Shown in pieces: positions 30,628 to 50,856 of a stretch of DNA of 64,000 bases. The notes beneath the pieces were generated by a model. That model did not search any database. It was not told the origin of the DNA and worked only from the letters and a program-made list of their open reading frames with translations. Made by a program: the position numbers and the translations under genes. Origin of the DNA: a virus (Duplodnaviria; Caudoviricetes); IMG/VR virus record IMGVR_UViG_3300014208_000026, positions 32,001 through 96,000 of that record, one strand, 5' to 3'. Each line of letters begins with the position of its first letter. Positions within the stretch are counted from its first letter, which is position 1.

Positions 30628-31296
30628 ATGAGCACACTCAGGAAGGCTGCGATTCAGTTGGCCCATGGGAACCCCAAGGTTCGTCCATATCTGTTGCCTC
30701 TACTGGCCCGTACGGCGGCGGGAGGAAAGTGGATTCAGGACGCCATTAAGCAGCCTGGGGCTCTCCATGAGCACTTTGGAATCCCGAAGGATGAAACTAT
30801 CCCCCCTGAAAAGATCGACGCCGAGATTGCCCGCGTGAAGTCGAAGAAGAAGCCTTCTGCGGGGGATGCAACCCTGCTCAAGCAGTTGAACCTCGCCAAG
30901 ACCCTCCGAGGGTTCGGGAAGAAAGCGGGGATGGTGGGGGACACAGAGCCTGTGCTGGGCACCGCTTTGGACTACTTCTCGCGAGATCGGGCCAAGAACC
31001 TTGTGAACAAGCTGCTGGCGAAGTACACGAATGGTATTTTCAGGGACACTTCTTGGAAGCCTCTGGGGGATATCCGACGGGCTTTCGAGCAGGCTAATAT
31101 CCCCCTGATCATTTCGGGCGGGACTTATGGCCACAACGATGAGGGCACGCCGACCAACAAGAGCTGGCACCTGGAGGTCCCCTTCATTAACCAGGGCGGG
31201 AAGCCCACATGGCTGATCGGTACTTGTGTGGCGTCGGGAGCAGGTTCCGTTAAGGACCCTCTGGAACGCTATGATCTCGTAGCATACGTGAGCTAG
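30628..31296 (+). CDS. putative virion cargo protein with N-terminal LAHxNP tag
   Basis: MSTLRKAAIQLAHGNPKVRPYLLPLLARTAA. Confidence 0.7.
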   Translation: MSTLRKAAIQLAHGNPKVRPYLLPLLARTAAGGKWIQDAIKQPGALHEHFGIPKDETIPPEKIDAEIARVKSKKKPSAGDATLLKQLNLAKTLRGFGKKAGMVGDTEPVLGTALDYFSRDRAKNLVNKLLAKYTNGIFRDTSWKPLGDIRRAFEQANIPLIISGGTYGHNDEGTPTNKSWHLEVPFINQGGKPTWLIGTCVASGAGSVKDPLERYDLVAYVS

Positions 31297-31308
31297 GGGG
31301 TTAGGGCC

Positions 31309-32121
31309 ATGGATGACAAGCAACTCCGAAAAACTTTGGTGCGGTTGGCTCACCAGAAGCCCGAGCTTCGTGGGAGGCTTCTGCCCCTGATCCGTACCGC
31401 GGCAGTGAAGCGTCCGGAAGAGTTCAAGCACCTCAAACGTTACACCTCTTCTGATCTGCGGGAGTTCTGTGACTCTCTGTACACGAAGAATTTCCTCCGG
31501 ATGAAAACCCACGACGCCTGGAAAACAGGGATGCTCCTCTCCTCTCCTATGTACGCTCTGGGTTCGGGGTTGTTGGGTTCGTTTGGCGGGCCAGTGGGCA
31601 AGGCGATCCGTGAACGTTCATTGAAACCGATTCTTGCAGGGGCTGCGGACCCAGGCGGGAAGATTCTGGACGGTATCCTGCGTACGATTGGGCCGGACAA
31701 CGTTTTGGAACTGATGTCAGGGGAAAAATACGCTTTCATCACCTGGATTACGGACAACGGGGAAAACGTTGTGTCGGTGTCTTTCCTCCCTGACAAAGAG
31801 AAGAAGGCCCCTGGCGTTGGAATGAAAGTTTTTGAAATCACGGACTACCTTCAGGCTCATGGTCTGATTCCGTCCGGCGGTGGTTCCCAGTGGAATTACT
31901 ATGGTCTGGAAAGCAAACCTGGGGAGGGACCCTTCGTTCGTCTTGGGAAGAGGACGATTCGATTGGTGTGGCGTAGTCGGCGTACGGATCAGTGGGCTCC
32001 AGGTAGGAAAGGTCCGTTGATGGATGGCGGGGCGGACCGTGAATATGCGTTCGGGAACACCACTCCTGCAATGCTGGACGGCATGATCGAGTACGTGAAA
32101 AAACACTCGAAGGGGCGGTAA
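31309..32121 (+). CDS. putative virion cargo protein with N-terminal tag
   Basis: LRKTLVRLAHQKPELRGRLLPLIRTAA. Confidence 0.75.
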   Translation: MDDKQLRKTLVRLAHQKPELRGRLLPLIRTAAVKRPEEFKHLKRYTSSDLREFCDSLYTKNFLRMKTHDAWKTGMLLSSPMYALGSGLLGSFGGPVGKAIRERSLKPILAGAADPGGKILDGILRTIGPDNVLELMSGEKYAFITWITDNGENVVSVSFLPDKEKKAPGVGMKVFEITDYLQAHGLIPSGGGSQWNYYGLESKPGEGPFVRLGKRTIRLVWRSRRTDQWAPGRKGPLMDGGADREYAFGNTTPAMLDGMIEYVKKHSKGR

Positions 32122-32123
32122 CA

Positions 32124-32552
32124 GTGGCTGCAACCCGAACTCTAGTATCTGCAACGTACCAGTCCGTCGTAGACGAAGGCACCTTTACCTTTGTCGTGAC
32201 GGTGGACTCGAACTCCATTTCTGGAGTGCAGAGCATTCGGGGTCCGAACGGGACGTACTTGGATTCCATGACCTCGTTGCCTCAAACGGTCGTGCAGGAT
32301 ATCCAGGACGCAATCACGCAGGTGGAGGACCAATTGGCCCAGACAAGTGATATCAATGGTCAGTTGGTGTTTGCAGGGGAAACAACGAAGGCTGTGGTTT
32401 TCGTGACTCCCATGGGGAACACCAACTATCGGGTGGTTACTTCCGTAGTGGACTACGTCCCTGTTCGAGTGATTAGTAAGACGACGACCGGTTTCACGGT
32501 GGAGACTGGCGTCACCTATACGGGTCGCGTTGGGTACGACGTTTTCGTATAA
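32124..32552 (+). CDS. putative structural protein with lectin-like C-terminal module
   Basis: Beta-rich; C-terminus resembles that of 33111-34322. Confidence 0.6.
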   Translation: MAATRTLVSATYQSVVDEGTFTFVVTVDSNSISGVQSIRGPNGTYLDSMTSLPQTVVQDIQDAITQVEDQLAQTSDINGQLVFAGETTKAVVFVTPMGNTNYRVVTSVVDYVPVRVISKTTTGFTVETGVTYTGRVGYDVFV

Positions 32553-32570
32553 GAAAGGGAGGAAAAGACC

Positions 32571-33095
32571 ATGGATAACACGCTGCTTCGTAAAAATCTG
32601 GTTCGGTTGGCGCATGAGAAGCCCGAGCTTCGTGAGAAGCTGGTCCCCCTGCTGAAGAAGACGGCGGGCGCAAATCGGAAGGCTTTTGCTTCCAAGGTGA
32701 AGACCGAGTTCAAGATCATTGTTGATCATATTGAGAAGACTACTACAGAAGATTTCCCTGATTCGGGAGCCTCTGGAAAGTCCAGCATCGAGATTTCTAA
32801 GAGCAATCTCGGGTCTTTTGGCTCTTTCAGTGAGGTCGTAGGCTTTCTTCAGAGACAGTATGATTTTCCAGGCTCTAAAGAAAATTGGAATGCTTTCGAG
32901 CCAGGGCGTGTTACGACGAACCGTTCTGAGACGGACTCCGGGAGTGTCCCTGATACCACAGAGACACTGGGTTGGCAGAAAGGGGAACAACGGCTGTTCC
33001 TTGCAGACTACAATGTCTGGTTCCATTTCGCCCGGGTCTATACGCCGAGCGAGAAGGAAATTTCCAAGGTCTTCAAGATTCCGATGTATGACTAA
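32571..33095 (+). CDS. putative virion cargo protein with N-terminal tag
   Basis: LRKNLVRLAHEKPELREKLVPLLKKTAG. Confidence 0.75.
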   Translation: MDNTLLRKNLVRLAHEKPELREKLVPLLKKTAGANRKAFASKVKTEFKIIVDHIEKTTTEDFPDSGASGKSSIEISKSNLGSFGSFSEVVGFLQRQYDFPGSKENWNAFEPGRVTTNRSETDSGSVPDTTETLGWQKGEQRLFLADYNVWFHFARVYTPSEKEISKVFKIPMYD

Positions 33096-33110
33096 GAGAG
33101 GTAAAAGACC

Positions 33111-34322
33111 ATGGCTCAGGGACCTTTCCAGGTAGACCAGCTTAAGATCGAGCCCTCAGCGGCCGGTACACGAACAATCGGACGCCATACGGATGGATCT
33201 ATTCTGTTCACGGACCCTGTGGCCGGAACTCTGACTCTTGCGCAGTTGGCTGGTTTGCAAACCATGACCAACGTGCTCATGGTCGGTAAGGGAGGCCCCG
33301 CTTCTCGCTACACAACCCTTACGGACGCCCTGGCCACTATCCCCCCTTCCGCGTCGAGCACGAACCCTTACGTGGTTCTGGTCGGTCCTGGGGTCTATGA
33401 AGAGAACGTGATTCTCAACAGCGACGGTGTGACTCTGTTCGCCTTGGGTTCCGTTCGAGTCACGGCTCCCTCGGGGAGTACAACGGCGGCTCTCACTATC
33501 CAGGCGGACGGTTCTGTTGTGCCGAAGGGCTGCAAGGTCATCGGGTTTTCTTTCGTCAACCCAAACAGCAATCGAGACTGTGTTCGCATTTATGGTCTGG
33601 CGGGTTCCGAAGTTGGGTCCGAGTGGCTCTCTTTCCTTGACTGTGACTTCGAAGCTTCAGGGGATGGGGCTTATCAAATTCGAGCGGACACGGCTGACTT
33701 CATCCGTGTCCAAGGGGGTTCCTGGTCGAACAGCCACGTCAACTCCCGCACCAAGTTCACGAACTGCGCTCGGGTTGTGGTTGAAGGGGTGCAGGACGCG
33801 AAAGACTTCACCCTCCTGTACGACACGACTGGTTCCGTTCCGAGTGAGGTTTCCAGTGAGTACCGCTTGGCCTATCTGAGCGGAGTTGACACCATCGCCT
33901 GCACCCTGTCTGGAGCGGGTAGCCTCTTCCTCGACAACGTGTCTCAAACTGGCAACCTCACGGTTGACGGGGACCGGCCTCTAGACGCTAGCTTCTGTAG
34001 GTTCGGAAACCTTACCGTGAACGGAACGGTAGAGGCAACACTGTCTGCCTGTTCCAGAGGAACCGCGACGGGTTCTGGTACAAGCACTCTGGCGGAATCC
34101 TATCTGAGCGGGTCCGCTTCTTTCACGGCGGATGATACAGGGGCCGTGGCTTTCGACGTGGGCCAGCCAGATACCGACTATTCCGTGTCCTTGGAACTCG
34201 GGGCAAATGCCGGAGGGTTAGTTCCTGCTTCGGTAGAGACAAAGACGGTTTCTGGTTTCGATATCGTTTTCGACGCTGCTCAGACCACGACGGTAGGCTA
34301 TACCGTGACTCGCAAGCTGTAA
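33111..34322 (+). CDS. beta-helix (pectin lyase/pectinesterase-like) fibre or spike protein
   Basis: YTTLTDAL...VLVGPGVYEENV entry motif followed by beta-helix-like repeats. Confidence 0.7.
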   Translation: MAQGPFQVDQLKIEPSAAGTRTIGRHTDGSILFTDPVAGTLTLAQLAGLQTMTNVLMVGKGGPASRYTTLTDALATIPPSASSTNPYVVLVGPGVYEENVILNSDGVTLFALGSVRVTAPSGSTTAALTIQADGSVVPKGCKVIGFSFVNPNSNRDCVRIYGLAGSEVGSEWLSFLDCDFEASGDGAYQIRADTADFIRVQGGSWSNSHVNSRTKFTNCARVVVEGVQDAKDFTLLYDTTGSVPSEVSSEYRLAYLSGVDTIACTLSGAGSLFLDNVSQTGNLTVDGDRPLDASFCRFGNLTVNGTVEATLSACSRGTATGSGTSTLAESYLSGSASFTADDTGAVAFDVGQPDTDYSVSLELGANAGGLVPASVETKTVSGFDIVFDAAQTTTVGYTVTRKL

Positions 34323-34339
34323 CAGGGAGACGTTGGATT

Positions 34340-35413
34340 ATGAACAAGCAAGCTGCGGCTACCGCCCTCCAGATCGTCGGGGAGTTTCTTTCTCGCGAAT
34401 GGCCCGAAGCCAAGAAGGCTATCGACGTCCAGGATTGGACCAAGGCTCTGAGCTGGGTCGACATGATGCTGTCTGCCTATTTCCACGCGGCGGGGATGAA
34501 CGAGGCTGTTCTCGACCTCTCGGACACGGACGCAGCTTCTCGCCTCTCTTCCCTGAAGCGGGCTTTGGAGCAGGGCGATCCGGACAAGATTGCTATCTGG
34601 GTGCGGTATGTTGAGCAAGAGGCGATCCCCGAGTGGAAGAAGATTCTCGTCAAGTACCGCTGGCAGTCGAAGTGGATGGGCAAAGCGGAGACCCTCATGC
34701 GGATGGCGAATCCGATTCTGAATGAGGCTGCGGGGATGAGCACTGCGATTTGGAAGAAGGTTTCGGAGAAGTATTTCACTGCGGGCCCCGAGGCGGCTCA
34801 GGAAATGCTCGACAAGATTAATGCCCGCAGGAACAAGGTAGCCCAGAAGTTCTCGTATGAGGATATGGTTGCCAACTTCTCACAGGCGAGTCTTGACGCC
34901 AAGGACTACTTCACGGACGGCGGTCAGGCTTGGAACGGCCCGAACTTCTCTCGCGTGCAGGACTACGTTCGTAAGGAGCGGGACGAAGCAACCCTGGACC
35001 TTCCGGTTATGTCGGGAACCAGAGTGGCTTTCAACCCCACCCTGGAAGCACTGTTGACCTATCCGACTCCTCCGAATGCCAAATACGCTGGAACGGTGGT
35101 TCGGGTGCGGACGGCACACGGGGATATGACAGCGGTCAAGGATCTCGTGTTCGTGAAGTGGGATACCGGTTCGTTCATGCCGGTCATGCGTCAGCACCTG
35201 CGTAGGGCGTCGACCAAGAACCAGAAGACGGCTTCCTCCTATCGTGTGGTGACGGCCTCCCTGGGGGACTTGACCGAATTCATGAAGGTTGGCGGGGCCA
35301 GCGACTCTCTCATCCACAAGGCCACTCGGGATCTGTGGAGCCTGGAGAAGTCCGGCGGGAAGTTCGTGCTGGAACGGTTGTTCACGGAATCTGGCGAGCC
35401 GCTTAAGGTGTAG
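34340..35413 (+). CDS. multidomain hypothetical virion-region protein
   Basis: 357 aa ORF with a KTASS junction. Confidence 0.7.
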   Translation: MNKQAAATALQIVGEFLSREWPEAKKAIDVQDWTKALSWVDMMLSAYFHAAGMNEAVLDLSDTDAASRLSSLKRALEQGDPDKIAIWVRYVEQEAIPEWKKILVKYRWQSKWMGKAETLMRMANPILNEAAGMSTAIWKKVSEKYFTAGPEAAQEMLDKINARRNKVAQKFSYEDMVANFSQASLDAKDYFTDGGQAWNGPNFSRVQDYVRKERDEATLDLPVMSGTRVAFNPTLEALLTYPTPPNAKYAGTVVRVRTAHGDMTAVKDLVFVKWDTGSFMPVMRQHLRRASTKNQKTASSYRVVTASLGDLTEFMKVGGASDSLIHKATRDLWSLEKSGGKFVLERLFTESGEPLKV

Positions 35414-35415
35414 GG

Positions 35416-36114
35416 ATGCAGAAGAAAGCGGATGCTGGTCAGGATATTCTCTGGAGTCTGGTCGACCGGAGGGCTTATGCAAAAGTGCGTAGTCGTTTGA
35501 TTCGGGAGGACACCCAGGCTGGAGAATTTCTGTCACAGATCGCAGGCAAGCTTATCGAGCTTCTGGATCTCCCCCAGAACGAAGAGTACGCCCTCAATAG
35601 ACTCCGGAACGTGGTCACGAACCATTGGGATATGGGGAACATTCGGAATCAGGTGTTCAAGGCTGCGGATCTGTTGGGGCTGAATCTGCCCTCGGGCATG
35701 TTCGCTTCGAAGAGGGCCGGTCAGAAGAAAGGGCGCCATGCGGGCTACGATATTCTGTTCAAGCTGATCGACGAACAGAAGTACAACGCCAAGCACGATG
35801 AGATCGAGAAGGCGGGGGATGCTCAAACGGCTTCCCTATTCTTGGACATCGGGGCTACTCTGGCGGGTCTTTTCTATCGGATGGTGCCAGGGCGAGAGGC
35901 TTTGGACCATTTCCAAGATGTCGTTGAAAACGGGCTGCGTTGGGACGTGGCTCTGATTCGTGAAAAGGTGGTTTCGGCAGCAAACTCGCTTGGACTGAAG
36001 GTTTCAGGCCTTCGTCTCGCCTCTGGGGACAAACAGCTTCGTAGAGACTTGATTCGTTTGGCTTCTGCTAATCCAGGTCTGAGAAGTGCCCTTCTCCCCT
36101 TGCTTTCAAGGTAG
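35416..36114 (+). CDS. protein with internal tandem duplication and C-terminal tag
   Basis: AGQDILWSLVD and AGYDILFKLID repeats; ends LRRDLIRLASANPGLRSALLPLL. Confidence 0.75.
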   Translation: MQKKADAGQDILWSLVDRRAYAKVRSRLIREDTQAGEFLSQIAGKLIELLDLPQNEEYALNRLRNVVTNHWDMGNIRNQVFKAADLLGLNLPSGMFASKRAGQKKGRHAGYDILFKLIDEQKYNAKHDEIEKAGDAQTASLFLDIGATLAGLFYRMVPGREALDHFQDVVENGLRWDVALIREKVVSAANSLGLKVSGLRLASGDKQLRRDLIRLASANPGLRSALLPLLSR

Positions 36115-36120
36115 TGATCT

Positions 36121-36990
36121 ATGGACTCAAAGCAGCAGACTCACCGCATCGTAGCCCGATGGGCCCTGAGACGGGCAGTTCAAGAGGTCTGTGCCTCTCC
36201 AGATTTCCACGTCCGTACCGCTTCTCTTGTTGGATTCACCCCCGAAGTGGTAACTGCTTTTGCGGACAGTTTCATCCTGCCGGTCATTGATTTCCACGAC
36301 CGGACAGCTTTGTTTGGAGGGCTCACCCGTAGGCTATCTCAGTTTGTGGAGATGCTTCGGAAGGCTCCCGCTCTTTGGGAGAAGATCAAAGAATTCCTAG
36401 GGATCAAGAATCTGTTGGATATTCCGAGAGCCATCAAGAAGTGGGCTCAAGAAGGATTCCAGGCGATCCGGAACGTGTTCAAGAAGCTGACGCACGAGTT
36501 TCCCTTGGCTCTGTTCTTCACGGTCCCGAAGGCTATGCCTACAATCACCGATGCTGTGAATCGTATCATGGCGAAGAGCCCCTTCATCCAGCGTGCGGTC
36601 AAGAGCATTCAAGGGGCGGCGGTGAAAATCGATCAGCTACTGGATAGGGCTCTGCCGACTTTCCGGCGTCCCATCCTGGCGGCAATTTTCATTTGGTTCT
36701 GGATGAACATTGCAGAACTGTCTTTCGACCTCCCGGGGACCATCGAGGGTTTCCTGGGTGGGGTTACTCTAGGACAACTTTTCAATGAGTTGCCCGAGAA
36801 CGGTTTGAGTTTCCTGGCGGGCATGTTCGGTTTGGGTTACGAGTTCCTGCCTCTGGTCATTATTGCCCGTGTTGCATGGTTGGTGTCTAAGCGATACATG
36901 AAATGGGTGCCGGGTAAGGGGTTGATAGTTGACTGGGGTGCCGTTACGGCAGGGGCGGAACGGTCTCAAGAATTCGTGTCCGTTTTTTAG
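36121..36990 (+). CDS. probable membrane protein
   Basis: Hydrophobic segments ILAAIFIWFW and FLAGMFGLGYEFLPLVIIA. Confidence 0.65.
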   Translation: MDSKQQTHRIVARWALRRAVQEVCASPDFHVRTASLVGFTPEVVTAFADSFILPVIDFHDRTALFGGLTRRLSQFVEMLRKAPALWEKIKEFLGIKNLLDIPRAIKKWAQEGFQAIRNVFKKLTHEFPLALFFTVPKAMPTITDAVNRIMAKSPFIQRAVKSIQGAAVKIDQLLDRALPTFRRPILAAIFIWFWMNIAELSFDLPGTIEGFLGGVTLGQLFNELPENGLSFLAGMFGLGYEFLPLVIIARVAWLVSKRYMKWVPGKGLIVDWGAVTAGAERSQEFVSVF

Positions 36991-37025
36991 CCTTTAGGCT
37001 TTCCTCTATAGGAGGAGAAGCCCTC

Positions 37026-37652
37026 ATGAGCAGTACAAAACGAGTTGCTAGTCGATATCTACAGCGTCAGTGGCCTCAGAATTTCAGAACCAAGACGGCC
37101 GGTGAGGTCATCCACGTCAAGGACAAGGCGGGAGACGCTCTGGAATGGGCTTATGCCCGTGGCCCGTCCGGTCGTGAGATTTCCCCGAACTTCAAGTTCA
37201 ACGAGAAGAACGTCAAGGTGCTGGCAAAAGTGATGCGCTCCCTGTTGGCCGCCCTTGGCCACACCATGACGGGGTACCACACTTTCACCAAGATCAAGTC
37301 GGTTGGCCTCTCCCCCGACGGCAAGTTGGGTGGCAAGGGTTACGTGATAGAGATCGCCACCATCCGTAAGCACCTGACGAACTGTATCGAGGCCCTCTCT
37401 TCGATCACTGACACCCTCTATGACGAAGTGAAAGCCCCGCATTGGGCCGCCGCTTCTCGTCAGGAGACTCCAGAAGCCAAGCAGGAACTCCATGAGGTCG
37501 TGGAGCAGGCCAAAGAAATCAAAGAGGACCCTGAGGGTTGGGCCGAAGAGCAGGAAGAGGATATGGGGGACGACGTTCCAGAGATCAACGACGAACCCGA
37601 TGAGCCTGTGAACCTTAAGACCGCCAGTACACGCTATCGCAGGAGCCGCTAA
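37026..37652 (+). CDS. hypothetical protein with RVASRYL tag
   Basis: 208 aa; KRVASRYL, KTAG and KTAS. Confidence 0.75.
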   Translation: MSSTKRVASRYLQRQWPQNFRTKTAGEVIHVKDKAGDALEWAYARGPSGREISPNFKFNEKNVKVLAKVMRSLLAALGHTMTGYHTFTKIKSVGLSPDGKLGGKGYVIEIATIRKHLTNCIEALSSITDTLYDEVKAPHWAAASRQETPEAKQELHEVVEQAKEIKEDPEGWAEEQEEDMGDDVPEINDEPDEPVNLKTASTRYRRSR

Positions 37653-41184: not shown

Positions 41185-41186
41185 CC

Positions 41187-41687
41187 ATGAGGCATACCGG
41201 AGCCCAACCTCGATTCAGTTTGCTTGTGGCACATTTCTCAGGGGCGCATGACGCCCAAGGAAATCCTGTGAAGCTGCGTAGCGTGATCACGCAGCAGCGC
41301 CTGAGCCTCAGTAATACCACTTGGGGCACAGGGCTGATCACCAGTGCTGTCGACGCCCCGTGTACAGCGACCATTACGGTTGCGGACAACGATTTCTCTA
41401 CGGGAGCCGTAGAACTGCACCTCGACGACCACCTGTTGGTTTCCGGTGTGCATTACGCTATTGGAGCCTCAGCTACTGACACGGCACACAATCTTGCAGC
41501 CGCGATTACGAACCTGCATGGATTCAATGCAACTCATTTGCTTGGGGTTGTATCAATTACGGGTCCTGTGGGTCCCGACGGCGGTACAATTGAATTGAAA
41601 GTGTTGCACCGTGGGACGATTCTCAATGTTACATACACGCCCTTCGTTGTGGGGCAACCCCGTCTCGGGCCGCTCAGCATCGCCTAG
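41187..41687 (+). CDS. putative structural protein
   Basis: Beta-rich 166 aa in the virion cluster. Confidence 0.6.
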   Translation: MRHTGAQPRFSLLVAHFSGAHDAQGNPVKLRSVITQQRLSLSNTTWGTGLITSAVDAPCTATITVADNDFSTGAVELHLDDHLLVSGVHYAIGASATDTAHNLAAAITNLHGFNATHLLGVVSITGPVGPDGGTIELKVLHRGTILNVTYTPFVVGQPRLGPLSIA

Positions 41688-41731
41688 TCCGTTTTTCATC
41701 CTTTACATTCCGTCACTGTAGGAGGAAGGCC

Positions 41732-42409
41732 ATGGCTGCGTCACCGCAGGCTATTGCAAGCAAACGTCTTTTGGTCGGTTTGGGCCCAGACGTGAAGCGT
41801 ATTCGTGTCATCAATAGCTACGGTCAAGAGACTTGGAGAACTCCGACTACCGTTGCCGATGCAGACGTGGTCATGACCAACGCCGAGGGCAAGCCCATCG
41901 TCATGCTCCAAGAGCCTGGGCGACCTAGGAAGGTTGAGGTCGAGCCGAATACCGAAGCTATTGCTGAGATGCTGCGGCTGAAGAAAGAGGAGGGGGGACG
42001 GTCCAAGATCATCAAGGCTCTGAAAGAGGACCCCGACTCCCTCAAGGGGTTGGATGCGCTCATCCTCGGTATGGCCGAAGAACAGGAATCTATCCGATTC
42101 GAACGCACGGTAGCCGAAAAGCACGGCAAGGATACGAGTACGCTGTCTATCCGCAGATCCCAGGCCCTACGTGCAATCGCTGAAACTTTGCTGAAGAAGC
42201 GGGAACTGGCTACGGCTAAGGAGATCGATCTGTCCAGTCCTACTTTCAAGGTTCTGTTGCGTTTCATCCTTGAGACTGTCCAGGAGGCCATGCGGGCGTC
42301 GGGTCTTCCAGAGGATGCAATCAACGACGTGTTCACCAAGTTCGGCAAGAAGATGAACGCTACGGAGTGGGAAGCAGATGCTAGACGGTCCATGAAGACC
42401 GCGAACTAG
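41732..42409 (+). CDS. possible terminase small subunit
   Basis: Helical 225 aa protein directly upstream of the terL cluster. Confidence 0.45.
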   Translation: MAASPQAIASKRLLVGLGPDVKRIRVINSYGQETWRTPTTVADADVVMTNAEGKPIVMLQEPGRPRKVEVEPNTEAIAEMLRLKKEEGGRSKIIKALKEDPDSLKGLDALILGMAEEQESIRFERTVAEKHGKDTSTLSIRRSQALRAIAETLLKKRELATAKEIDLSSPTFKVLLRFILETVQEAMRASGLPEDAINDVFTKFGKKMNATEWEADARRSMKTAN

Positions 42410-42521
42410 GGAGGGGGAGATAGAAAGTGCTTTTCAGAGTTAGTGCCGATTCGTCCAACTGGGAGTTGGACGTTAGCTGGGCCATGGTGGCCCGGGAATG
42501 GCCTCAAGGAGGGGCCTTATA

Positions 42522-43676
42522 ATGTTGAGAGTTACAGAGTTCGTCGAGCGAGACCTGGGGTTCAAGTTGTTTCCGGTGCAGAAGTTTTTCCTCAGAATGG
42601 CTTATGGGGAGGCTCTGGACACCAAAGAGAAGTTCAAAGTCCCGCGAAGCTGGCACCTGGATAGCTTTTATGACATGACAGAGGCCGAGTATTTGCAGTT
42701 TCTGTACAACGAAGGGCGTTGCAATGCTTCGGAGCCAGACCCGTCCTTGAGAGACGTGTTTCTGGCAGGAGGCAGGCTCGGCTCCAAGTCAACCCTGAGC
42801 GCAATCCTATCGGCCTACGAGACATATAAGCTGATTCAAAAAGATAACCCACAGAAATACTACGGAATGTTGGAAGGGACGACAATTGACGTATTGTCTG
42901 TGTCTACAGACAAAGATCAAGCCGGAATGGTTTACCAAGAGGCGTCATTACTGCTGAGCCGCAGCGGGTACACCCGTCCCTATAGGGCACTTTCGACCCT
43001 GTCGTATACGAGGTTTCAGTCCCCCGCGGACGTCAGGCGTTATGGTTTTTTCCAGGGCCAGGAGGCGGGGTCTAAAGCCACTCTCCGTATGACTTTCAGG
43101 TCATGTATCGCAAAGGGTCTTAGGGGTCCTAACTGTGCCGCCGTGATTCTTGACGAGATGGCCCATTTTTGCGACGAAGGTCAGGGCTCAGCGGAAGCTG
43201 TCTACGACGCTGTGACCCCTAGTATCGCAAATTTCACTCCCAAAGACCCGACTGATCCGAGGATTGTGATCGGTCCTCGGGAGTCTAGTCTTTTTGTTCT
43301 TTCCACCCCCCTGATTGCCGTTCAAGGGGATGAGCCTGATTTCTTCTGTAGTTCGTACTCCAGTTCTTTCAAGTCTGGCGGGTGCCTATGCCTCCAGATC
43401 CCGACTTGGGAGCTTAACCCTGCTATTCCGGTTGGGGTGTATCAGAAAGCCTTTGAACGGAACCTCGCTACTTTCGAGGCAGAGTTCGGGGCGCGGTTCG
43501 TTACGCGGGAAAAAGTCGTGACCCCCTCATCCGGGATTTCTCGAATCAAGGTGCTGGTGCTCAGGTCGGGCGTAGAGACGTGGTTGCAGCTAGAAGGGCT
43601 CCAGGAGACTGACGTCATCCCCTTGAAAATTGATGGTACTCCTTTTATCGCAATGACCCGAACCGGAGATAACTAA
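42522..43676 (+). CDS. terminase large subunit paralog 1, ATPase domain only
   Basis: LFPVQ, GGRLGSKS, ILDEMAH, IPTWELNP; no nuclease domain; ATG after AAGGAGG. Confidence 0.8.
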   Translation: MLRVTEFVERDLGFKLFPVQKFFLRMAYGEALDTKEKFKVPRSWHLDSFYDMTEAEYLQFLYNEGRCNASEPDPSLRDVFLAGGRLGSKSTLSAILSAYETYKLIQKDNPQKYYGMLEGTTIDVLSVSTDKDQAGMVYQEASLLLSRSGYTRPYRALSTLSYTRFQSPADVRRYGFFQGQEAGSKATLRMTFRSCIAKGLRGPNCAAVILDEMAHFCDEGQGSAEAVYDAVTPSIANFTPKDPTDPRIVIGPRESSLFVLSTPLIAVQGDEPDFFCSSYSSSFKSGGCLCLQIPTWELNPAIPVGVYQKAFERNLATFEAEFGARFVTREKVVTPSSGISRIKVLVLRSGVETWLQLEGLQETDVIPLKIDGTPFIAMTRTGDN

Positions 43677-43677
43677 A

Positions 43678-44628
43678 ATGCATGGAATCATCGAGTTCGC
43701 CGAGAAGAGCCTGAATATCCGTCTCTATCCTGTCCAGAAAGTCGTCCTCAAGACTATCTATGGAGAGCCTTTGGACGACAGGGAAGCCTTTAAGATCCCG
43801 ACCGATTGGAGACAAGAAAAGTATCTCTCCATGACAGAGGCAGGATACCTTCAGTATCTATATGAAGAGGGACGAAGCAACGTGAGGGAGCCTAATCCCG
43901 CACTCAAAAAATCCGTTCTCGTAGCCGGACGTCGGGTAGGTAAGAGTTTTCTGGAAACTATCATCATGAGGCACGAGATCCAGAAGTTGGTTTCTCCGGA
44001 TTTTGGAGATCCTCATGCTAGATATGGTTTGTCGCTGAATGACAAGATCAATGTTATATCGGTTACTCCAGGGAGTGATCTAGCCCGCTACATCAAGACA
44101 GAGTTCTGTGCTCTTGTTCCGGGAGTGCCTACTTACGGGGAGTCTGGGACAAGATTCCGGACTTCTGCTCTGAACAGTTCTCTGCGCTCCCCTGCGGAGT
44201 ATAACGTGCGGGCTATGTTCCTGTCTTCTTACTCTCCAGAAGTTTTGAGAGGTTTGAATGCCTATGTTTTGATTTTGGATGAGGCAGGGCATATGACGGA
44301 CAGGCAGTTGTGCGATATCACAAACGCTTGTGGTGCCTATGTGTTTTTTCCGAAAAAAGAGGGCAAGCCTAGCGGGCCTCTGGAGTCCAGAGTTGTCACT
44401 ATCTCCTCTCCTGGAAGGCCCTTTTACGATAAACGCAAAACACTATTCCAGCAGATATATGAGATAGATTTCAGAATGGGGACCAGTACGTGTTTCCAGA
44501 TTCCGACGTGGGAAATGAACCCCACTATCCCTGCCAAAGAGTATTCTAAGCACTATGACAAAGATCCTCTTATTTTTGAAATAGAGTTCGGGGCTAGGTT
44601 CTTGGAGTACAAGGAGACTCTTGTATAA
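43678..44628 (+). CDS. terminase large subunit paralog 2, ATPase domain only
   Basis: LYPVQ, GRRVGKS, ILDEAGH, IPTWEMNP; ends at EFGARF. Confidence 0.8.
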   Translation: MHGIIEFAEKSLNIRLYPVQKVVLKTIYGEPLDDREAFKIPTDWRQEKYLSMTEAGYLQYLYEEGRSNVREPNPALKKSVLVAGRRVGKSFLETIIMRHEIQKLVSPDFGDPHARYGLSLNDKINVISVTPGSDLARYIKTEFCALVPGVPTYGESGTRFRTSALNSSLRSPAEYNVRAMFLSSYSPEVLRGLNAYVLILDEAGHMTDRQLCDITNACGAYVFFPKKEGKPSGPLESRVVTISSPGRPFYDKRKTLFQQIYEIDFRMGTSTCFQIPTWEMNPTIPAKEYSKHYDKDPLIFEIEFGARFLEYKETLV

Positions 44629-47600
44629 TGGCTGGTTTAGGTGACATAGCCCTCGACATTGGGCGCAAGGCTTCCACGGGGAAGGGTAGCGGCAAGATTG
44701 CCAACATCATCGACTTCGTCGAGTCTCCCTGGGGGTTGAAGGCCAGACTGTATCCTGTCCAACGGGTGATCCTCAAAGCCCACTACGGGATCCCCCTGGA
44801 TGACCGGAACAAGATTGTCAATCTCACGGATTGGCGCCGCGAAGATTCGCGCATGATGACTGAGGCTGACTATCTTAAATTTCTATTTGATGCGGGTAGA
44901 TGTAATATTAGAGAAGTAGATCATGAACGTAGAGAGATGATACTCTCGGTCGGACGTCGCTCGGGCAAGTGCAATTTGGGTGATAGTTTAATATTAACTA
45001 ATAAAGGTGTAACAAGAATAGATGCTCTAGGCGATCCTAACGGACCGGAGTTTCAGCCTCTCGAAATCGAGGTTGCCCAGGAAGCAGATAGAAAGGCGAT
45101 TTCGAAGTTTTTCTACAACGGGGGTGTGAAGCCCACCCGTACTTTGACCACTCGCTGCGGTTACAGACTTGGGGGGACGGACAACCATCGTATCAAGGTT
45201 CTGACCCAAGACGGCATAGTGGATTGGAAGTACCTTGCGGATATCCAGGTCGGGGATACCGTTTGCATTCACCGTAAGACGGACCTGTGGGCTTCCGAAT
45301 ACGTTGACTGCACCCCCTACTGGACAAGCGGGGGGTTGAAAAAACTCACTTTTCCGACTTTGTTGGACGAGGATTGGGGTTTCTTGTTGGGTCTTCTCGC
45401 GGGGGACGGAACCTGGGTTCACAAGACCGGCATAGAATTGACCGTGGCTGATATTGAAACCAAAATTCACGCTCGTGCCCTGTGGGATCAGCTTTTTGGC
45501 AGTCACAAAGAGCAGCAGGTTAAGGAATCTCCGATAACCAGTAGAGTGCAGTTTTTCAGTGTCGCTATGAGGCAGTTCCTTCACAACCTAGGCTGGGAGC
45601 TTGGCATTGCTCGGGACGCCAAGATGGTGCCCTGGTCCATCATGAGGTCCCCTAAGTCTGTTGTCCAAGCTTTCCTGCGGGGTCTGTTTGAGACGGACGG
45701 CGGGGTTGAATCTGGCGGTAAGGTCGTTTCATTCAGCACTGCGAGCGGCCGACTGGCCCGAGAAGTGCAAACTCTCCTTCTCAATCTGGGTATTGTCAGC
45801 CGTATCAAGCCGAAACCTATCAAGGGCAAGATTTACTGGATCTTGTGCGTCAGAGGGCTTCGGAGTCGGATTGCTTTTGCTGAACTCGTAGGATTCGACT
45901 CGCACAAGAAAATGGATCCCCTGCTGGCGTCGATTGAGGCGGCAGGGAAAGAAGGGAGCAATGCAGAAGGGATCCCGTACCAAAGACCCTGGTTGCGGAA
46001 ACTGTTGGAGTCTGTTCCTGCCCTTCAGGGCATTCCGGGGCACAAGCAGGAGTGGAGCCGGTCCAAGCTTCGGGCGGTATTAGGCAACACTCTCAAGCCC
46101 AGCACCGCTGAAGAAGTAACATATCCTATGTTGTTGAATGCCCTTCCCGTTGCTCGCTCCCTGGGAGCAGACCTTAGAATCATTGCCCATTTCGAGGAAC
46201 TTCAGCGCCTCGACTATTTCTTCGACCCCATCGAGACCATCGAGGAGGGGGAACATCCTGTCTACGACCTGAACGTGCCCGACGGGGAGTCTTTCGTAGC
46301 CAACGGGATGACAAACCACAACACGATGATCTCGGCTCTCATTTCCGTCTACGAGATGTACAAGCTGATCCAGAAGGGCAATCCGCAACACTACTATGCT
46401 CTTCCGCAGACCAACAACATTCAGATCATCTCGGTCGCTACGGACAAAGACCAAGCAGGAATTCTCTACAACGAGGCTTCCGGCTATTTCCGTTCGTGTG
46501 ATTTCTTCCAACCGTATACCGCCAACAACACCCTGTCCTATGCTCGTTTCCAGTCGCCCGAGGATATCCAGTTGTACGGTCCCTACGCTGAGGACCCTAC
46601 GGCCAAGGCTACTCTCCGCATGACCTTCCGGTCCTGCGTTGCGAAGGGGCTCCGTGGTGCTGGTAACCTTGTGGTCATCCTCGACGAGGTAGCCCACTTT
46701 ACGGATTCGGGGCAGTCCTCTGCTTCCGCCGTGTATGACGCTGTGCAGCCGTCTACCGCTACGTTCTTCCCGAAGGACCCGAAGGACCCTACGACCCCTC
46801 TCGGTCCTGGTGAGGGCCGTACCATTCTGATTTCTTCCCCGCTCGGTCGAGAAGGCATGTTCTACAAGCTCTTCGAGATCGGGTTCAAGGGCGGAGAGGC
46901 CGCCGAGAACATGCTTTGTGTTCAAGCCCCCACCTGGGAGGTAAACCCGACCGTTCCGGCCAGTGAGTTCAAGAAGCATTTTGCCAAGGACGCCAAGGTC
47001 TTCTTCACGGAGTTTGGGGCGGACTTCTCGGATCGTACTCGTGGTTGGATTGAACGCGAGAAAGACCTGACGGACTGTATTAAGCCGGATGCGAAACCGA
47101 CGTACAAGGCCGCTCCCAGACAGCCTCACTTCTTGGGTCTGGACGTCGGGTTGGTGAACGACGGTACCGCTATTGCCATCGGACACAATGAAGGCGACCT
47201 GATCGTCCTGGATATCATGGACTACATTCGAGCTGGAGAGGGCAAGTACGTTCACCACGAACGGTTGGAGTTTGAGGACGTGGCCCAGTGGGTTTACGAG
47301 TGGACTCGCCGTTTCCATATCAAAGAGGGCATTTTTGATAAGCACCTTGCAGACGTGATGGAGCAGTACCTGACTAAGAAGGGTATCGGGACGCTGGTTT
47401 CGCAAAGGTTCACTCCGCAGGAACGATCAGATGTGTACCAGTCGTTCAAGGATATGATGTACGACCGGAGGCTGGTCCTCTATGACGCTCCGATTGTTTC
47501 CGGAGAAATCCACTGTGCGTACATCAAGGAACTGTTGGAGTTGCAGGCAGAGACGCGCACCAAGTATATCACCGAGGTCAGAGCCCCGAATATCGAAGGC

Positions 47601-47834
47601 AAGCACGACGATATGTCGGACGCCTTGACCCGTATGGTCTGGTTGGCTTCTCAGGCGGCCTGTAAGACCCATCACATTGCTGTGACCAGCGGGGCTACCA
47701 GCAGGGACTACGTTCGTGACCCTATGTTGTCCTCATCGAGCAAAGCCGTTATGCGCCGTCACCGGATGACCCGTTCAGGGAGTTCTCCTGAGCGAATGAT
47801 TCCGAGGGGCGGGCGGCTTGGAAGGCGGTTCTAA
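44628..47834 (+). CDS. terL: terminase large subunit, full length, with intein
   Basis: LYPVQ, spliced GRRSGKT, ILDEVAH, nuclease LGLDVG...HDDMSDA. Confidence 0.92.
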   Translation: MAGLGDIALDIGRKASTGKGSGKIANIIDFVESPWGLKARLYPVQRVILKAHYGIPLDDRNKIVNLTDWRREDSRMMTEADYLKFLFDAGRCNIREVDHERREMILSVGRRSGKCNLGDSLILTNKGVTRIDALGDPNGPEFQPLEIEVAQEADRKAISKFFYNGGVKPTRTLTTRCGYRLGGTDNHRIKVLTQDGIVDWKYLADIQVGDTVCIHRKTDLWASEYVDCTPYWTSGGLKKLTFPTLLDEDWGFLLGLLAGDGTWVHKTGIELTVADIETKIHARALWDQLFGSHKEQQVKESPITSRVQFFSVAMRQFLHNLGWELGIARDAKMVPWSIMRSPKSVVQAFLRGLFETDGGVESGGKVVSFSTASGRLAREVQTLLLNLGIVSRIKPKPIKGKIYWILCVRGLRSRIAFAELVGFDSHKKMDPLLASIEAAGKEGSNAEGIPYQRPWLRKLLESVPALQGIPGHKQEWSRSKLRAVLGNTLKPSTAEEVTYPMLLNALPVARSLGADLRIIAHFEELQRLDYFFDPIETIEEGEHPVYDLNVPDGESFVANGMTNHNTMISALISVYEMYKLIQKGNPQHYYALPQTNNIQIISVATDKDQAGILYNEASGYFRSCDFFQPYTANNTLSYARFQSPEDIQLYGPYAEDPTAKATLRMTFRSCVAKGLRGAGNLVVILDEVAHFTDSGQSSASAVYDAVQPSTATFFPKDPKDPTTPLGPGEGRTILISSPLGREGMFYKLFEIGFKGGEAAENMLCVQAPTWEVNPTVPASEFKKHFAKDAKVFFTEFGADFSDRTRGWIEREKDLTDCIKPDAKPTYKAAPRQPHFLGLDVGLVNDGTAIAIGHNEGDLIVLDIMDYIRAGEGKYVHHERLEFEDVAQWVYEWTRRFHIKEGIFDKHLADVMEQYLTKKGIGTLVSQRFTPQERSDVYQSFKDMMYDRRLVLYDAPIVSGEIHCAYIKELLELQAETRTKYITEVRAPNIEGKHDDMSDALTRMVWLASQAACKTHHIAVTSGATSRDYVRDPMLSSSSKAVMRRHRMTRSGSSPERMIPRGGRLGRRF
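44970..46322 (+). mobile_element. LAGLIDADG intein in TerL Walker A (451 aa)
   Basis: Starts CNLGDSLIL, has LLGLLAGDG and FLRGLFETDG, ends NHN before Thr. Confidence 0.92.
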
Positions 47835-47836
47835 CC

Positions 47837-48085
47837 ATGAGCGCACTTTCCCCAAAGAGTCCTATCAGGGCGGATCACCGAGTGATCTGGAAAGTTGTGA
47901 AGCTGACAGGCGGGAACGGGGCTCTGCGAATTGACAGTGAGATGACTCGCATCTCGAACGTCTTTCGAAGGCTGGGTGGGTCCTGGACGGGTTTCTTCAA
48001 AGGGAGCATCGACGATGTGACTCTGTTGAAGAAGGTGGTGCGGTTCGCTATGAAAAAGGGATACGTGACGAAGAGTTCTGAGTAA
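47837..48085 (+). CDS. small basic hypothetical protein
   Basis: 82 aa ORF in operon. Confidence 0.55.
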   Translation: MSALSPKSPIRADHRVIWKVVKLTGGNGALRIDSEMTRISNVFRRLGGSWTGFFKGSIDDVTLLKKVVRFAMKKGYVTKSSE

Positions 48086-48103
48086 GAAGGTAGAGTAGAG
48101 ACT

Positions 48104-48430
48104 ATGAGTAAGATGCGGGCCCGTCTATCTTCCATGGAAAACGATAGAGAGGTGCAAAGCCATGTAGCCGAGGCCGAAAGTGCCTTGGCGAAGGCAATGC
48201 AAGTTGCCAGGGCTGCATCGGGAGAGGCTGGTTCTGCTCAAAGGACACGTTCGGTTGCCGTGATTCGGGATATCGAGAGGGCGTTACATGCCCTGTCTGG
48301 AATCCGGAGAATCGGGGGGATTGATCTTACCGATGAGGATTTGATGGGTTCGGAGGAGAGAAAGAAGGTACGGGAGGCACGAGCGGTTGCCCGTGACGAA
48401 AAGACTCAACGTGCTCGAAGGAGTGCTTAA
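48104..48430 (+). CDS. hypothetical protein
   Basis: 108 aa ORF in operon. Confidence 0.6.
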   Translation: MSKMRARLSSMENDREVQSHVAEAESALAKAMQVARAASGEAGSAQRTRSVAVIRDIERALHALSGIRRIGGIDLTDEDLMGSEERKKVREARAVARDEKTQRARRSA

Positions 48431-48432
48431 CT

Positions 48433-50304
48433 ATGGCTGTCCAAAAACCGCGTACACGTCGAGTGTCTATCGTTGGGAATCGAGGGACCCCCCGGAGGGT
48501 CGTGGCAGGGGCCATGCGGTCGAACGGGTTGGAGGGGGCTGTTGAAGTCTCTAAAGTAAAGCCTCGTCCGGCAACCCTGGGCCGTCCCGCCGTCAGGACG
48601 GGAAAGCCAGGGAAGATTGCCTCTGGCTCGATGCGGTTGGGTACTTCCGCTTTCGGCATGCCCGGGATTGGGAACTCTACGATGGGGCAGGGAGGTAACT
48701 TCTACTCCCCTGAGTTGTCGACTGACTTTTTGGAATTGCCGCAGAGCAGGGACGAAGAACGAAACTACTATCGGTTCTTCTACAAGCACGATCCTTTCGT
48801 CGGTCAGGCTATTGACCTCCAGACAGATATTCCGCTCTCGAAGATTCGATTGGGTAAGCCTGAGATTCCAGAGTTTGATTTGGACTATTTGAACAGCCCC
48901 GAAGGAAAGGAATTCTTGAAGGGGGCGGACAAACTGGCCAAGCAGTCCCAGCGGTTCTGCAAGAAGTGGAACCGTAGGATTCACTTGCTGAAACAACTTC
49001 TGGATATCTCCCATGATTTGAACCTTCTCGGTGAGGTTTTCGTTTTCATAGAGGACGACAATCCAGAGATGCCTGACGACGTGAGATACAACACGGTCCT
49101 GGCGATTGATCCCGAAGGGGGGGAGCCAGTAGAGCAGAAGCATGAGCGCGAAGACGCGGATGAGCGGGCCTACGAGTGGCTCCGGACGCATTACAAGGGA
49201 TGGACCGCCATGCGGGTTCTGCCGCCCGAGCAGATCAGTATGAAGTCTTTCCCCTTCACTGACGAGAGGCTCATCCAGCTCATTATTGATAGTAAGACCA
49301 AGGATCTCGTGAACCAAGCTATGGCGGGGGATCCCGACTCCCAGCGGATCATGGAAAGTCTGCCTGAGGATGTGGTTAATGCTGTGCTAGAAGGGGTCAA
49401 CATTCCTTTGAACACGGACCCTGAAGCAGGATCTTTCGTACATTATATATCTCGTCGTAAGTCTCAATATGAAGAGAGAGGCACTTCTGTATTATCAAGA
49501 TGTATAAGAACACTTGTTTTTATGGACAAATGCCGTCAGGCAAATACTTCGATTGCATCTCGTCATATGACACCTATGCGTATTGTTTGGGTTGAAGATG
49601 GCGATGCGGCTGATGTTGAAGAATTGCGTGAACAAGTTGATATGGCGCTTCAGGACCCCGACTATTCGATCATCACGAACTATCAGGTCAACTGGGAGGA
49701 GATGGGGGCGGAGCAGCGGCTTCTGGATCTAACTAGTGAGTACGAGCGAGCAGACCGTATGTTGTATGCCGGTCTGGGAGTTACGGAGTCGCTGTTGTCC
49801 GGTGAGTCCTCCTACTCAGGGGATAGGATCAACCTGGAGGTGATCAACACCCGTTTCATGCTCTTCCGCGAGTTGATGCAAGAGTTTGTCGAAGAGCACC
49901 TCTACGCTCCGATGTGTCGCCGGATGGGTTACGTGGTCACGGACGAGTGGGGGGACGAGATTCCGCTGGTTCCTGGACTGTCCTTTACTCGACTGGCTCT
50001 GCGGGACAATGCGGACACGTTCGACTCCATGCTGAACCTCTACCAGAAGGGCAGTTTGGATATTGACGTGATCCTGGAACTCTTGAATATCGATCCCGAG
50101 ACGACCCGCGAGAAGCTGAAGCGGGATCTGTTCACTCTCCAGGACGCCACCTTCAACGAACTTCTGCGTAGCATCTACAACGACGCGGCTCAGAAGCTCA
50201 ACGACAATTCCAACATGATCGACCTCATGGCGAAGAAGATGGGGATCGACGGGCTGGTGTACAAGAAGGCACAGGAAGAAGGCGACGGTCGGTTCGGCGG
50301 CTAG
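48433..50304 (+). CDS. probable portal protein
   Basis: 623 aa downstream of terL; YRFFYKHDPFVGQAID, RGTSVLSRC and LYAGLGV patterns. Confidence 0.75.
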   Translation: MAVQKPRTRRVSIVGNRGTPRRVVAGAMRSNGLEGAVEVSKVKPRPATLGRPAVRTGKPGKIASGSMRLGTSAFGMPGIGNSTMGQGGNFYSPELSTDFLELPQSRDEERNYYRFFYKHDPFVGQAIDLQTDIPLSKIRLGKPEIPEFDLDYLNSPEGKEFLKGADKLAKQSQRFCKKWNRRIHLLKQLLDISHDLNLLGEVFVFIEDDNPEMPDDVRYNTVLAIDPEGGEPVEQKHEREDADERAYEWLRTHYKGWTAMRVLPPEQISMKSFPFTDERLIQLIIDSKTKDLVNQAMAGDPDSQRIMESLPEDVVNAVLEGVNIPLNTDPEAGSFVHYISRRKSQYEERGTSVLSRCIRTLVFMDKCRQANTSIASRHMTPMRIVWVEDGDAADVEELREQVDMALQDPDYSIITNYQVNWEEMGAEQRLLDLTSEYERADRMLYAGLGVTESLLSGESSYSGDRINLEVINTRFMLFRELMQEFVEEHLYAPMCRRMGYVVTDEWGDEIPLVPGLSFTRLALRDNADTFDSMLNLYQKGSLDIDVILELLNIDPETTREKLKRDLFTLQDATFNELLRSIYNDAAQKLNDNSNMIDLMAKKMGIDGLVYKKAQEEGDGRFGG

Positions 50305-50361
50305 TTTTTTTTTTGCCTATAGGGTCTGTCTGGGTAGGTGAGTTTCTTAACTTGAAAGGTT

Positions 50362-50856
50362 ATGACCATGACGACCCTGAAGAGCGCGTGTGTGAAGTTG
50401 GCGTATGAGAATCCGGAACTCCGCCCTCTGCTGATGCCTCTGCTGCGAAGCAAGACGGCAACCGAATTCCCCTCAAAAGAGGCTCTTGAGAAGTACCTCA
50501 AGGATCACCCCGGGGCAAACCGGTCGAACCATAAAGTTGTCGAGAACAAGGGTAAGGGAGAGGCCAAGACTGAGGGCAAAGAGGATTCTAAGGCTGTCTC
50601 CATGTCTCGTGAAGGCTACAAGGCTATTGCAAATTCCCTCCGTGGGTTTGGCAGTTCAGGTTCTTGGGAGCACGTTATTTCCTATGCCATTTCGGATAAG
50701 CCCATGGAAAGGAAGCACGTGGATAAGGTTCTTTCCGACATCAACGGGTATCTGAAGAACTGGAAAGCAACCTCCGAGAGTAACCGTTGGGGGGACAGGG
50801 ACAAGAAGAGCCTGACTCGGGCCAAGGGCATTCTGGAGAATTGGTCCAAGAAGTAG
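50362..50856 (+). CDS. putative virion cargo protein with N-terminal tag
   Basis: LKSACVKLAYENPELRPLLMPLLRSKTAT. Confidence 0.75.
   Translation: MTMTTLKSACVKLAYENPELRPLLMPLLRSKTATEFPSKEALEKYLKDHPGANRSNHKVVENKGKGEAKTEGKEDSKAVSMSREGYKAIANSLRGFGSSGSWEHVISYAISDKPMERKHVDKVLSDINGYLKNWKATSESNRWGDRDKKSLTRAKGILENWSKK

Follow-up and report, generated by a model that had tools for sequence, protein, structure and literature searches.

Why should proteins of one phage that show no other resemblance carry the same short peptide at one of their ends? This question is raised by IMG/VR record IMGVR_UViG_3300014208_000026, a single viral contig of 257,181 bp with a CheckV completeness of 49%, in which we analyzed a stretch of 64,000 nucleotides (bases 32001-96000; hereafter the window). 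Five window genes encode dissimilar proteins that bear a common tag of about 27 residues. Our reading of the sequence patterns, to which we give about an even chance, is that the tag may be a portable address module that directs cargo to the head and can be cleaved off, in the manner of the capsid-targeting sequence (CTS) of phage T4. Coordinates preceded by "genome" refer to the whole contig, and all others are window positions.

Unrelated proteins share a conserved peptide

We built a hidden Markov model (HMM) from the five window copies of the tag and ran it on every stop-to-stop frame, in all six frames, of the contig. The five source copies, four N-terminal and one C-terminal as an earlier note on this DNA had described (Table 1), were recovered with E values of 1e-15 to 1e-21. 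The same note had confined the tag to five window proteins; this proved too narrow, as three further copies were found outside the window (genome 119924 and 128578 on the + strand, and 154539 on the - strand), giving eight on the contig. The next-best hit beyond them had an E value of 0.2, and the eight copies are cleanly separated from chance. The N-terminal copies begin 2-6 residues past the initial methionine, and a purine-rich, ribosome-binding-like stretch lies upstream of each start.

The bodies to which the tags are attached had been described as lacking evident similarity. Consistent with this, comparison of the eight bodies after removal of the tags gave no significant similarity (best pairwise BLASTP E 0.1); all eight are net basic. 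Third codon positions at identical residues agree only ~40% between copies, and thus the peptide appears to have been kept by selection and not by recent DNA copying. The exception is the pair 50362 and genome 119924, whose tag cores are 91% identical in protein and 84% in DNA. We rejected paralogy or chance as the origin of the shared tag, given the unrelated bodies and the ~40% third-position agreement.

We found that the short motif R/K-T-A lies within 1-3 residues behind all four N-terminal window copies, as the earlier note had it. Given a [KR]TA background of ~1.2 per 1000 residues in the proteome, the probability of finding it by chance in a 6-residue window behind every one of the four copies is ~1e-9. 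The copies outside the window have K-T-A in two of three cases and K-L-A in the third, while R-L-A-S directly precedes the C-terminal copy. The motif also occurs within a tagged protein (genome 153583-154539), which is composed of the tag, two ~30-residue modules each ending in K-K-A-G/A, and three ~80-residue repeats. Here, K-T-A-S/G stands before the second and the third repeat, exactly between the repeated units.

Among the window bodies, residues 34-99 of p30628 match Pfam PF25632, the fusellovirus VP2 family (30.6 bits, cut-off 27), and the protein also matches phrog_15706 (E 1.3e-8). VP2 of archaeal spindle viruses is a virion DNA-binding protein. The search with the p31309 body among 5.8 billion proteins found only the protein itself and no relative.

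The tag recurs on thousands of metagenomic proteins

The consensus of the tag, (K)(K/T/G)(A)(S)-LRxxLIRLA(H/Y)xNPELRxxLLPLL-K-x-A-(A/G), has a core of ~27 residues with three conserved arginines. The conservation reaches 100% at Ala12, 98% at Arg19, 96% at Pro16, and 92% at Pro24. Sub-types of the tag with LLPLL and with LLGVL can be distinguished. Judged from its residue pattern, the tag probably folds into a pair of short amphipathic helices.

A profile of the eight tags was scored against 1.84 billion representative proteins and matched 3,618 clusters of metagenomic proteins at E <= 0.001 and 272 at E <= 1e-10. Together with the eight copies found on the contig, this is the outcome of the scan of genome and metagenomes that the earlier note had suggested. 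The proteins contain one to six tags, and many clusters have two to six matched stretches. The best 150 proteins hold 345 tags, with 119 right behind Met1, 55 at the very C terminus, and 171 at internal positions. That the tag is portable, as initially proposed from the window, is borne out by its presence at either end or in the interior of thousands of unrelated proteins and by the selection acting on the peptide.

A degenerate DNA pattern of the core was found on three contigs of metagenome-assembled genomes among 185,579 species genomes, possibly phage fragments, and in 60 stretches on ~35 IMG/VR contigs, mostly of 50-485 kb. All 28 viral records searched carry 1-15 tags each. By these searches, the tag is judged to be virus-specific. 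Among 50,697 deposited phage genomes, it occurs only in the uncultured 485 kb phage LR745208.1 (11 copies). This is also the nearest record by portal similarity (57% identity), followed by Tunturiibacter phage Tunturi_5 (33%) and Bacillus phage G (26%).

No Pfam family matched the tag above cut-off in the 10 + 10 + 79 proteins scanned, and the PHROGs matches of tagged proteins were to function-unknown families only. The tag motif strings and a description of the tag were not found in the literature searched. The folded bodies among tagged proteins include a VP2-like DNA-binding domain, GNAT, and RelA/SpoT.

Tagged proteins were also seen to be mosaics of short conserved mini-modules that recur in thousands of metagenomic proteins (50362-50856; L001:2925-3374; L003:2584-3540; and others). 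Examples are EALxKYLKDHPxAD..H.V, YQDYVxRKKKxGEKPL, DPTENMSPExKxKWExN, and GCEKLPEGPMRxNCEKKK, none of which is in Pfam. In p50362, a second recurrent mini-module, EFPSKEALEKYLKDHPGAN..HKV, stands behind the tag, and the same order is found in its metagenomic relatives.

A prohead protease of assemblin fold is predicted in the head module

The Pfam S78, S77, and Phage_capsid models matched nothing in the contig. An 1,104-amino acid protein encoded just beyond the window contains two inteins (amino acids 129-615 and 672-805), which adjoin invariant EH and LSMGC motifs. Its extein has 483 amino acids, and intein-free homologues in relatives have 474-505. Pfam and PDB sequence searches with an intein-free homologue were empty; because neither sequence profiles nor the PDB sequence search gave a match, the protein was recognized as a protease by fold comparison only. 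The AlphaFold2 model of the homologue, obtained with a 53-sequence alignment, had a predicted local distance difference test score (pLDDT) of ~90 over residues 31-254, as compared to 37 with a 4-sequence alignment. The model resembled the herpesvirus assemblins of varicella-zoster virus (Z 10.3) and pseudorabies virus (Z 10.0; structures including 1VZV, 4V08, and 1AT3) and T4 gp21 (Z 9.9, root mean square deviation 2.4 Å over 124 residues). The top 30 fold matches were herpesvirus assemblins and T4 gp21, the first Foldseek hit was gp21 (probability 0.92), and the look-alikes in the ESM Atlas were S77/S80/S78 prohead proteases. H58, H130, and S181 (in LSMGC) are invariant in the 53 homologues and are candidate catalytic residues. 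By its modeled fold, the phage is predicted to encode an assemblin/T4 gp21-fold prohead protease.

The very acidic 459-amino acid protein is read as the scaffold; its gene is overlapped by a spurious opposite-strand open reading frame. With the gene of the major capsid protein (MCP), the order protease-scaffold-MCP corresponds, as far as the modeled fold of the protease indicates, to a canonical head module with an assemblin-fold protease. Identity of the MCP is 84-88% over the best 120 of the 1,974 clusters that it matched, and 76-88% in 18 of the 28 records that bear tags. In contrast, the portal of the nearest relative (57% identity) and the protease homologues (45-60%) are far more diverged.

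In several relatives, a tagged gene lies within or beside the head module. In a 437 kb relative whose record has terminal repeats (L093:3218-3631, - strand), the divergent tag LIGLALARPTLREALGPVLKRAG starts a 137-amino acid gene directly upstream of the protease gene, and in the 485 kb relative, a tagged 134-amino acid gene lies between the scaffold gene and a 228-amino acid protein upstream of the MCP. The C terminus of the protease itself, EARTLIRLASLL, resembles the first helix of the tag, but it scored -0.8 bits with the HMM and was rejected as evidence.

Tags and head proteins share a site motif

K/R-T-A occurs genome-wide at twice its expected frequency. After removal of P-loops, [KR]TA[SAG] was found at 1.0-1.7 per 1000 amino acids in genome 60-120 kb as compared to 0.14 expected (7-12x), and at 0-0.8 elsewhere. 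The enriched region holds the portal, tagged genes, polyvalent proteins, protease, scaffold, and MCP. In metagenomic proteins, 56% of the internal and C-terminal tags have [KR]xA[SAGT] directly upstream, and 37% of the N-terminal and internal ones have it downstream, while background windows have it in 2.3% (16-24x).

The head proteins contain the motif at conserved positions. The scaffold has nine [KR]xA[SAGT] sites, among them K-K-A-S at residue 10 and an R-T-A-S that immediately precedes the conserved C-terminal peptide; the scaffolds of relatives keep the x-A-S core at both places, while the basic residue varies. In the protease family, 51 of 53 homologues have R-(V/T)-A-(S/A/G) at residue ~25, where the N terminus, disordered in the model, ends. 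The MCP carries an invariant K25-L-A-x-S29. Thus, the clipping at (K/R)TA that the earlier note had envisaged gains indirect support from the gp21-fold protease, from conserved sites in head proteins, from the enrichment confined to the portal-to-capsid region, and from the enrichment at tag flanks, while cleavage itself stays at the level of a prediction.

A second recurrent motif, R-V/I-A-S-R-[FYW]-L, was observed in ~18 proteins at N termini, at C termini, and inside polyvalent proteins, often right after K-T-A. It occurs in window 30290-61600 and genome-wide, for example at 37026, 36121, the C terminus of 50920, 53753 (three times), and 55929. Because its first four residues fit K/R-x-A-S, it may perhaps be an extended protease site and not a separate tag.

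A possible route for loading and release of head cargo

The steps that we infer, namely, docking, its partner, cleavage, packaging, and injection, would run as follows. The tag would dock on a component of the assembling prohead so that the attached protein becomes enclosed. The likeliest docking partner would be the hyper-conserved MCP, a candidate because it is far more conserved than portal and protease, or the very acidic scaffold. The assemblin/T4 gp21-type protease would then cut the K/R-x-A-(S/A/G) sites bordering the tag and free the cargo inside the head. The same protease would act on sites in the scaffold, at its own N terminus, and probably at residues 25-29 of the MCP. Proteins with multiple tags, and strings of mini-modules with such sites between them, would represent polyproteins that are cleaved to yield small internal peptides. 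The freed basic bodies would remain inside the head, and some would presumably be injected.

We more tentatively propose a broader picture, which we hold with clearly less than even confidence. A large and globally abundant clade of ~450-500 kb megaphages might use one universal ~27-residue tag and an Ala-Ser-type protease site as a loading code. The products of 10-20 or more genes per genome, including mini-module polyproteins, might attach to the capsid lattice on its inner side, be released by cleavage, and be delivered together with the DNA. A retained docking surface would explain why the MCP is 84-88% identical while portal and protease are at 45-60%, and the tag might be a ready handle for foreign proteins.

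Several observations weigh against head cargo. The tag is absent from the cultured phages that are related by their portals, Tunturi_5 and Bacillus phage G; because, among deposited phage genomes, only an uncultured record bears it, virion proteomics is not transferable from cultured phages, and the presence of tagged proteins in virions is likewise something that we infer. Three of the eight tagged genes are outside the head region, one of them on the opposite strand, and those of the 485 kb relative are scattered over ~240 kb. When 79 of the longer tagged proteins were searched with Pfam and PHROGs, hardly any functional family and no recognized virion enzyme turned up. The T4 system offers no parallel to C-terminal, internal, or tandem tags. 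Modeling gave no confident structure for the tag, and the helical character assigned to it by the earlier note holds as a judgment from the residue pattern and not as a structure. A complex prediction with MCP, scaffold, and tag had a score of 0.00, with a pLDDT of ~48 for the tag, and counts neither for nor against the reading. Finally, the K/R-x-A flanks could instead reflect a linker or helix-cap habit. However, as judged from the sequences, the sharing of the motif at conserved positions of head proteins and its enrichment in the head region are not explained by a plain linker habit.

The flanks would be mere linker composition if the tag served for docking in general, as a solitary HEAT/LRV-type unit whose partner is a host protein, the outer capsid surface, the tail or baseplate, or a compartment for replication or assembly. 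Tandem tags are indeed spaced 7-12 residues apart, like stacked repeats, and the tagged genes are partly dispersed over the genome. Multi-tailspike phages classically share N-terminal anchors on otherwise different proteins, which provides a precedent. Pfam LRV and LRV_2 gave no match above cut-off, the best being one tag in P0030 (LRV_2, 16.5 bits versus a cut-off of 27, E 0.008), and no match among window proteins; two profile hits are true LRV proteins. We consider a general docking module unlikely, since the bodies are small, basic, and mostly orphan and not fibre- or spike-like, a tagged gene lies inside or beside the head module in several relatives, and the flank motif recurs at conserved positions of the scaffold, the protease, and the MCP and shows enrichment only from portal to capsid.

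The tags could also be assembly elements, with tag-tag or tag-scaffold association building an inner core or auxiliary scaffold that is later degraded and expelled, leaving little or nothing to be delivered to the host. Many small proteins are made up of 2-5 tags with highly charged linkers, and putative cut sites flank the tags on either side, which would suit the removal of pieces. In addition, a delta domain is lacking from the MCP, and relatives that reach 437-485 kb imply a very large capsid. Such a role nonetheless seems improbable to us, as the phage already has a canonical acidic scaffold, distinct from the tagged proteins and bearing a conserved C-terminal peptide of its own, and single tags on folded, diverse bodies (VP2-like, GNAT, and RelA/SpoT) resemble cargo. 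A degradation or chaperone-recognition signal that times the removal or folding of phage proteins, unrelated to the virion, would account for the preference for the extreme N or C terminus (174 of 345 copies), which degrons and chaperone-binding leaders also favor, but it is very improbable given a 27-residue element with near-invariant positions that is often internal and multi-copy, unlike known degrons, and given the site motif that ties the tag to head-maturation genes.

The head-cargo reading is favored over these alternatives because the site motif is shared with head proteins and confined to the head region. If it is true, thousands of orphan megaphage proteins would get a first functional label as head cargo that is probably injected, and the protein payload of huge phages would become countable from sequence alone. 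It would also turn the cut-site rule of the maturation protease, notably close to that of the herpesvirus assemblin, into a testable prediction, provide a compact conserved tag usable to load foreign proteins into large capsids, and offer an explanation for the unusual MCP conservation in the clade.

Genomic context of the tagged genes

The + strand carries nearly all genes of the contig. The tagged block lies just upstream of and around three terminase-like genes and the portal gene, with polyvalent proteins downstream (Table 1). The three terminase-like genes are alike in their N-terminal parts, and only the third, intein-bearing one is full length. Two genes after the portal, behind p50362, a 368-amino acid protein (50920-52026) has an HEFGH (zincin-like) motif and ends in RVAGRWL; it is without a Pfam or PHROGs match and may be a candidate second protease.

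Table 1. Positions of the tag copies, tagged genes, and head genes (aa, amino acids)
Feature	Position	Strand	Length	Details
Tag copy 1, N-terminal	30628..30717	+		MSTLRKAAIQLAHGNPKVRPYLLPLLARTA, R-T-A at end; HMM E 3e-19
Tagged gene p30628	30628..31296	+	222 aa	Net basic; ribosome-binding stretch upstream of 30628
Tag copy 2, N-terminal	31309..31401	+		MDDKQLRKTLVRLAHQKPELRGRLLPLIRTA; HMM E 7e-20
Tagged gene p31309	31309..32121	+	270 aa	Orphan body; no Pfam family
Tag copy 3, N-terminal	32571..32666	+		MDNTLLRKNLVRLAHEKPELREKLVPLLKKTA; HMM E 5e-20
Tagged gene p32571	32571..33095	+	174 aa	C-terminal part matches phrog_24968 (function unknown), E 1.8e-5
Tagged gene p35416	35416..36114	+	232 aa	Tag at C terminus, ...RLASGDKQLRRDLIRLASANPGLRSALLPLLSR and stop; two internal repeats in body
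Tag copy 4, C-terminal	36013..36111	+		RLAS-GDKQLRRDLIRLASANPGLRSALLPLLSR, then stop; HMM E 2e-15
Terminase-like paralogue	42498-43676			Consecutive with 43678-44628 and 44628-47834
Terminase-like paralogue	43678-44628			Consecutive with 42498-43676 and 44628-47834
Terminase large subunit	44628..47834	+		LAGLIDADG intein; context gene
Portal protein	48433..50304	+		phrog_16240, E 6e-31; relatives found
Tag copy 5, N-terminal	50362..50460	+		MTMTTLKSACVKLAYENPELRPLLMPLLRSKTA; HMM E 5e-21
Tagged gene p50362	50362..50856	+	164 aa	Directly downstream of portal gene
Predicted prohead protease	genome 103161-106475 (window-equivalent 71161-74475)		1,104 aa	Length includes two inteins
Protein read as scaffold	genome 106491-107870		459 aa	141 D/E versus 51 K/R; conserved C-terminal peptide ...LWESAPDVS..F
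Conserved protein	directly upstream of MCP gene		222 aa
MCP	genome 108768-109643		291 aa	phrog_2522, E 3e-50; no delta domain

Comparison with known loading and maturation systems

The T4 internal proteins IPI-III and Alt are loaded via an N-terminal targeting sequence that is removed by gp21 (Mullaney & Black 1996, as cited in PMC10052503). The analogy with T4 drawn in the earlier note holds in that unrelated basic proteins share a short leader with a site for the prohead protease, putative here, behind it and in that gp21 has the fold predicted for the protease here. It does not extend to the details: the T4 CTS is ~10 residues long, strictly N-terminal, and ends in L/I-x-E, whereas the tag has ~27 residues, is also C-terminal, internal, or tandem, and is bordered by the Ala-Ser-like K/R-x-A-S/A/G. 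The tag is also far more conserved, across thousands of proteins, and by inspection, the two have no sequence resemblance. The CTS is portable to foreign proteins with packaging proven, while the tag is known from sequence alone. By analogy, the tag system would work like the T4 CTS but not be a member of it.

In phiKZ-like giant phages such as SPN3US, many head and ejection proteins have N-terminal propeptides that are removed by a gp21-like protease (gp245 in SPN3US); long propeptides hold several cut sites, a targeting role has been proposed, and the cleavages were shown by mass spectrometry (PMC10052503, PMC5694885). In contrast to the tag, these propeptides are not one conserved module across unrelated proteins, and their motif ends in Glu.

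Encapsulins use cargo-loading peptides, and the HK97 protease has a C-terminal capsid-targeting tail; both are short portable elements that dock cargo on the inner face of an HK97-fold shell or on its delta domain. No homology with the tag was seen, and these peptides are shorter, differ in sequence, usually occupy one terminus, and are not removed by a protease. The C-terminal helix-turn-helix of the P22 scaffolding protein is a small basic two-helix coat binder that has been used to load foreign cargo. However, it is confined to the scaffold and not shared by many genes, and the scaffold here ends in a different peptide, LWESAPDVS.

Herpesvirus assemblins cut (V/L)-x-A-S between alanine and serine, including at the site that releases the C-terminal capsid-binding peptide of the scaffold. 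To our knowledge, herpesviruses do not load many unrelated proteins via one shared portable tag. The P3 residue of the putative cut site is Lys/Arg here as compared to Val/Leu in herpesviruses. The predicted protease resembles the assemblins in fold (Z ~10) and in the Ala-Ser core of its putative cut site, with a site just before the conserved C-terminal peptide of the scaffold. It also has a C-terminal helical extension, as pUL26 carries scaffold sequence. Thus, by analogy, the arrangement of sites in this phage appears strikingly parallel to assemblin/scaffold maturation in herpesviruses.

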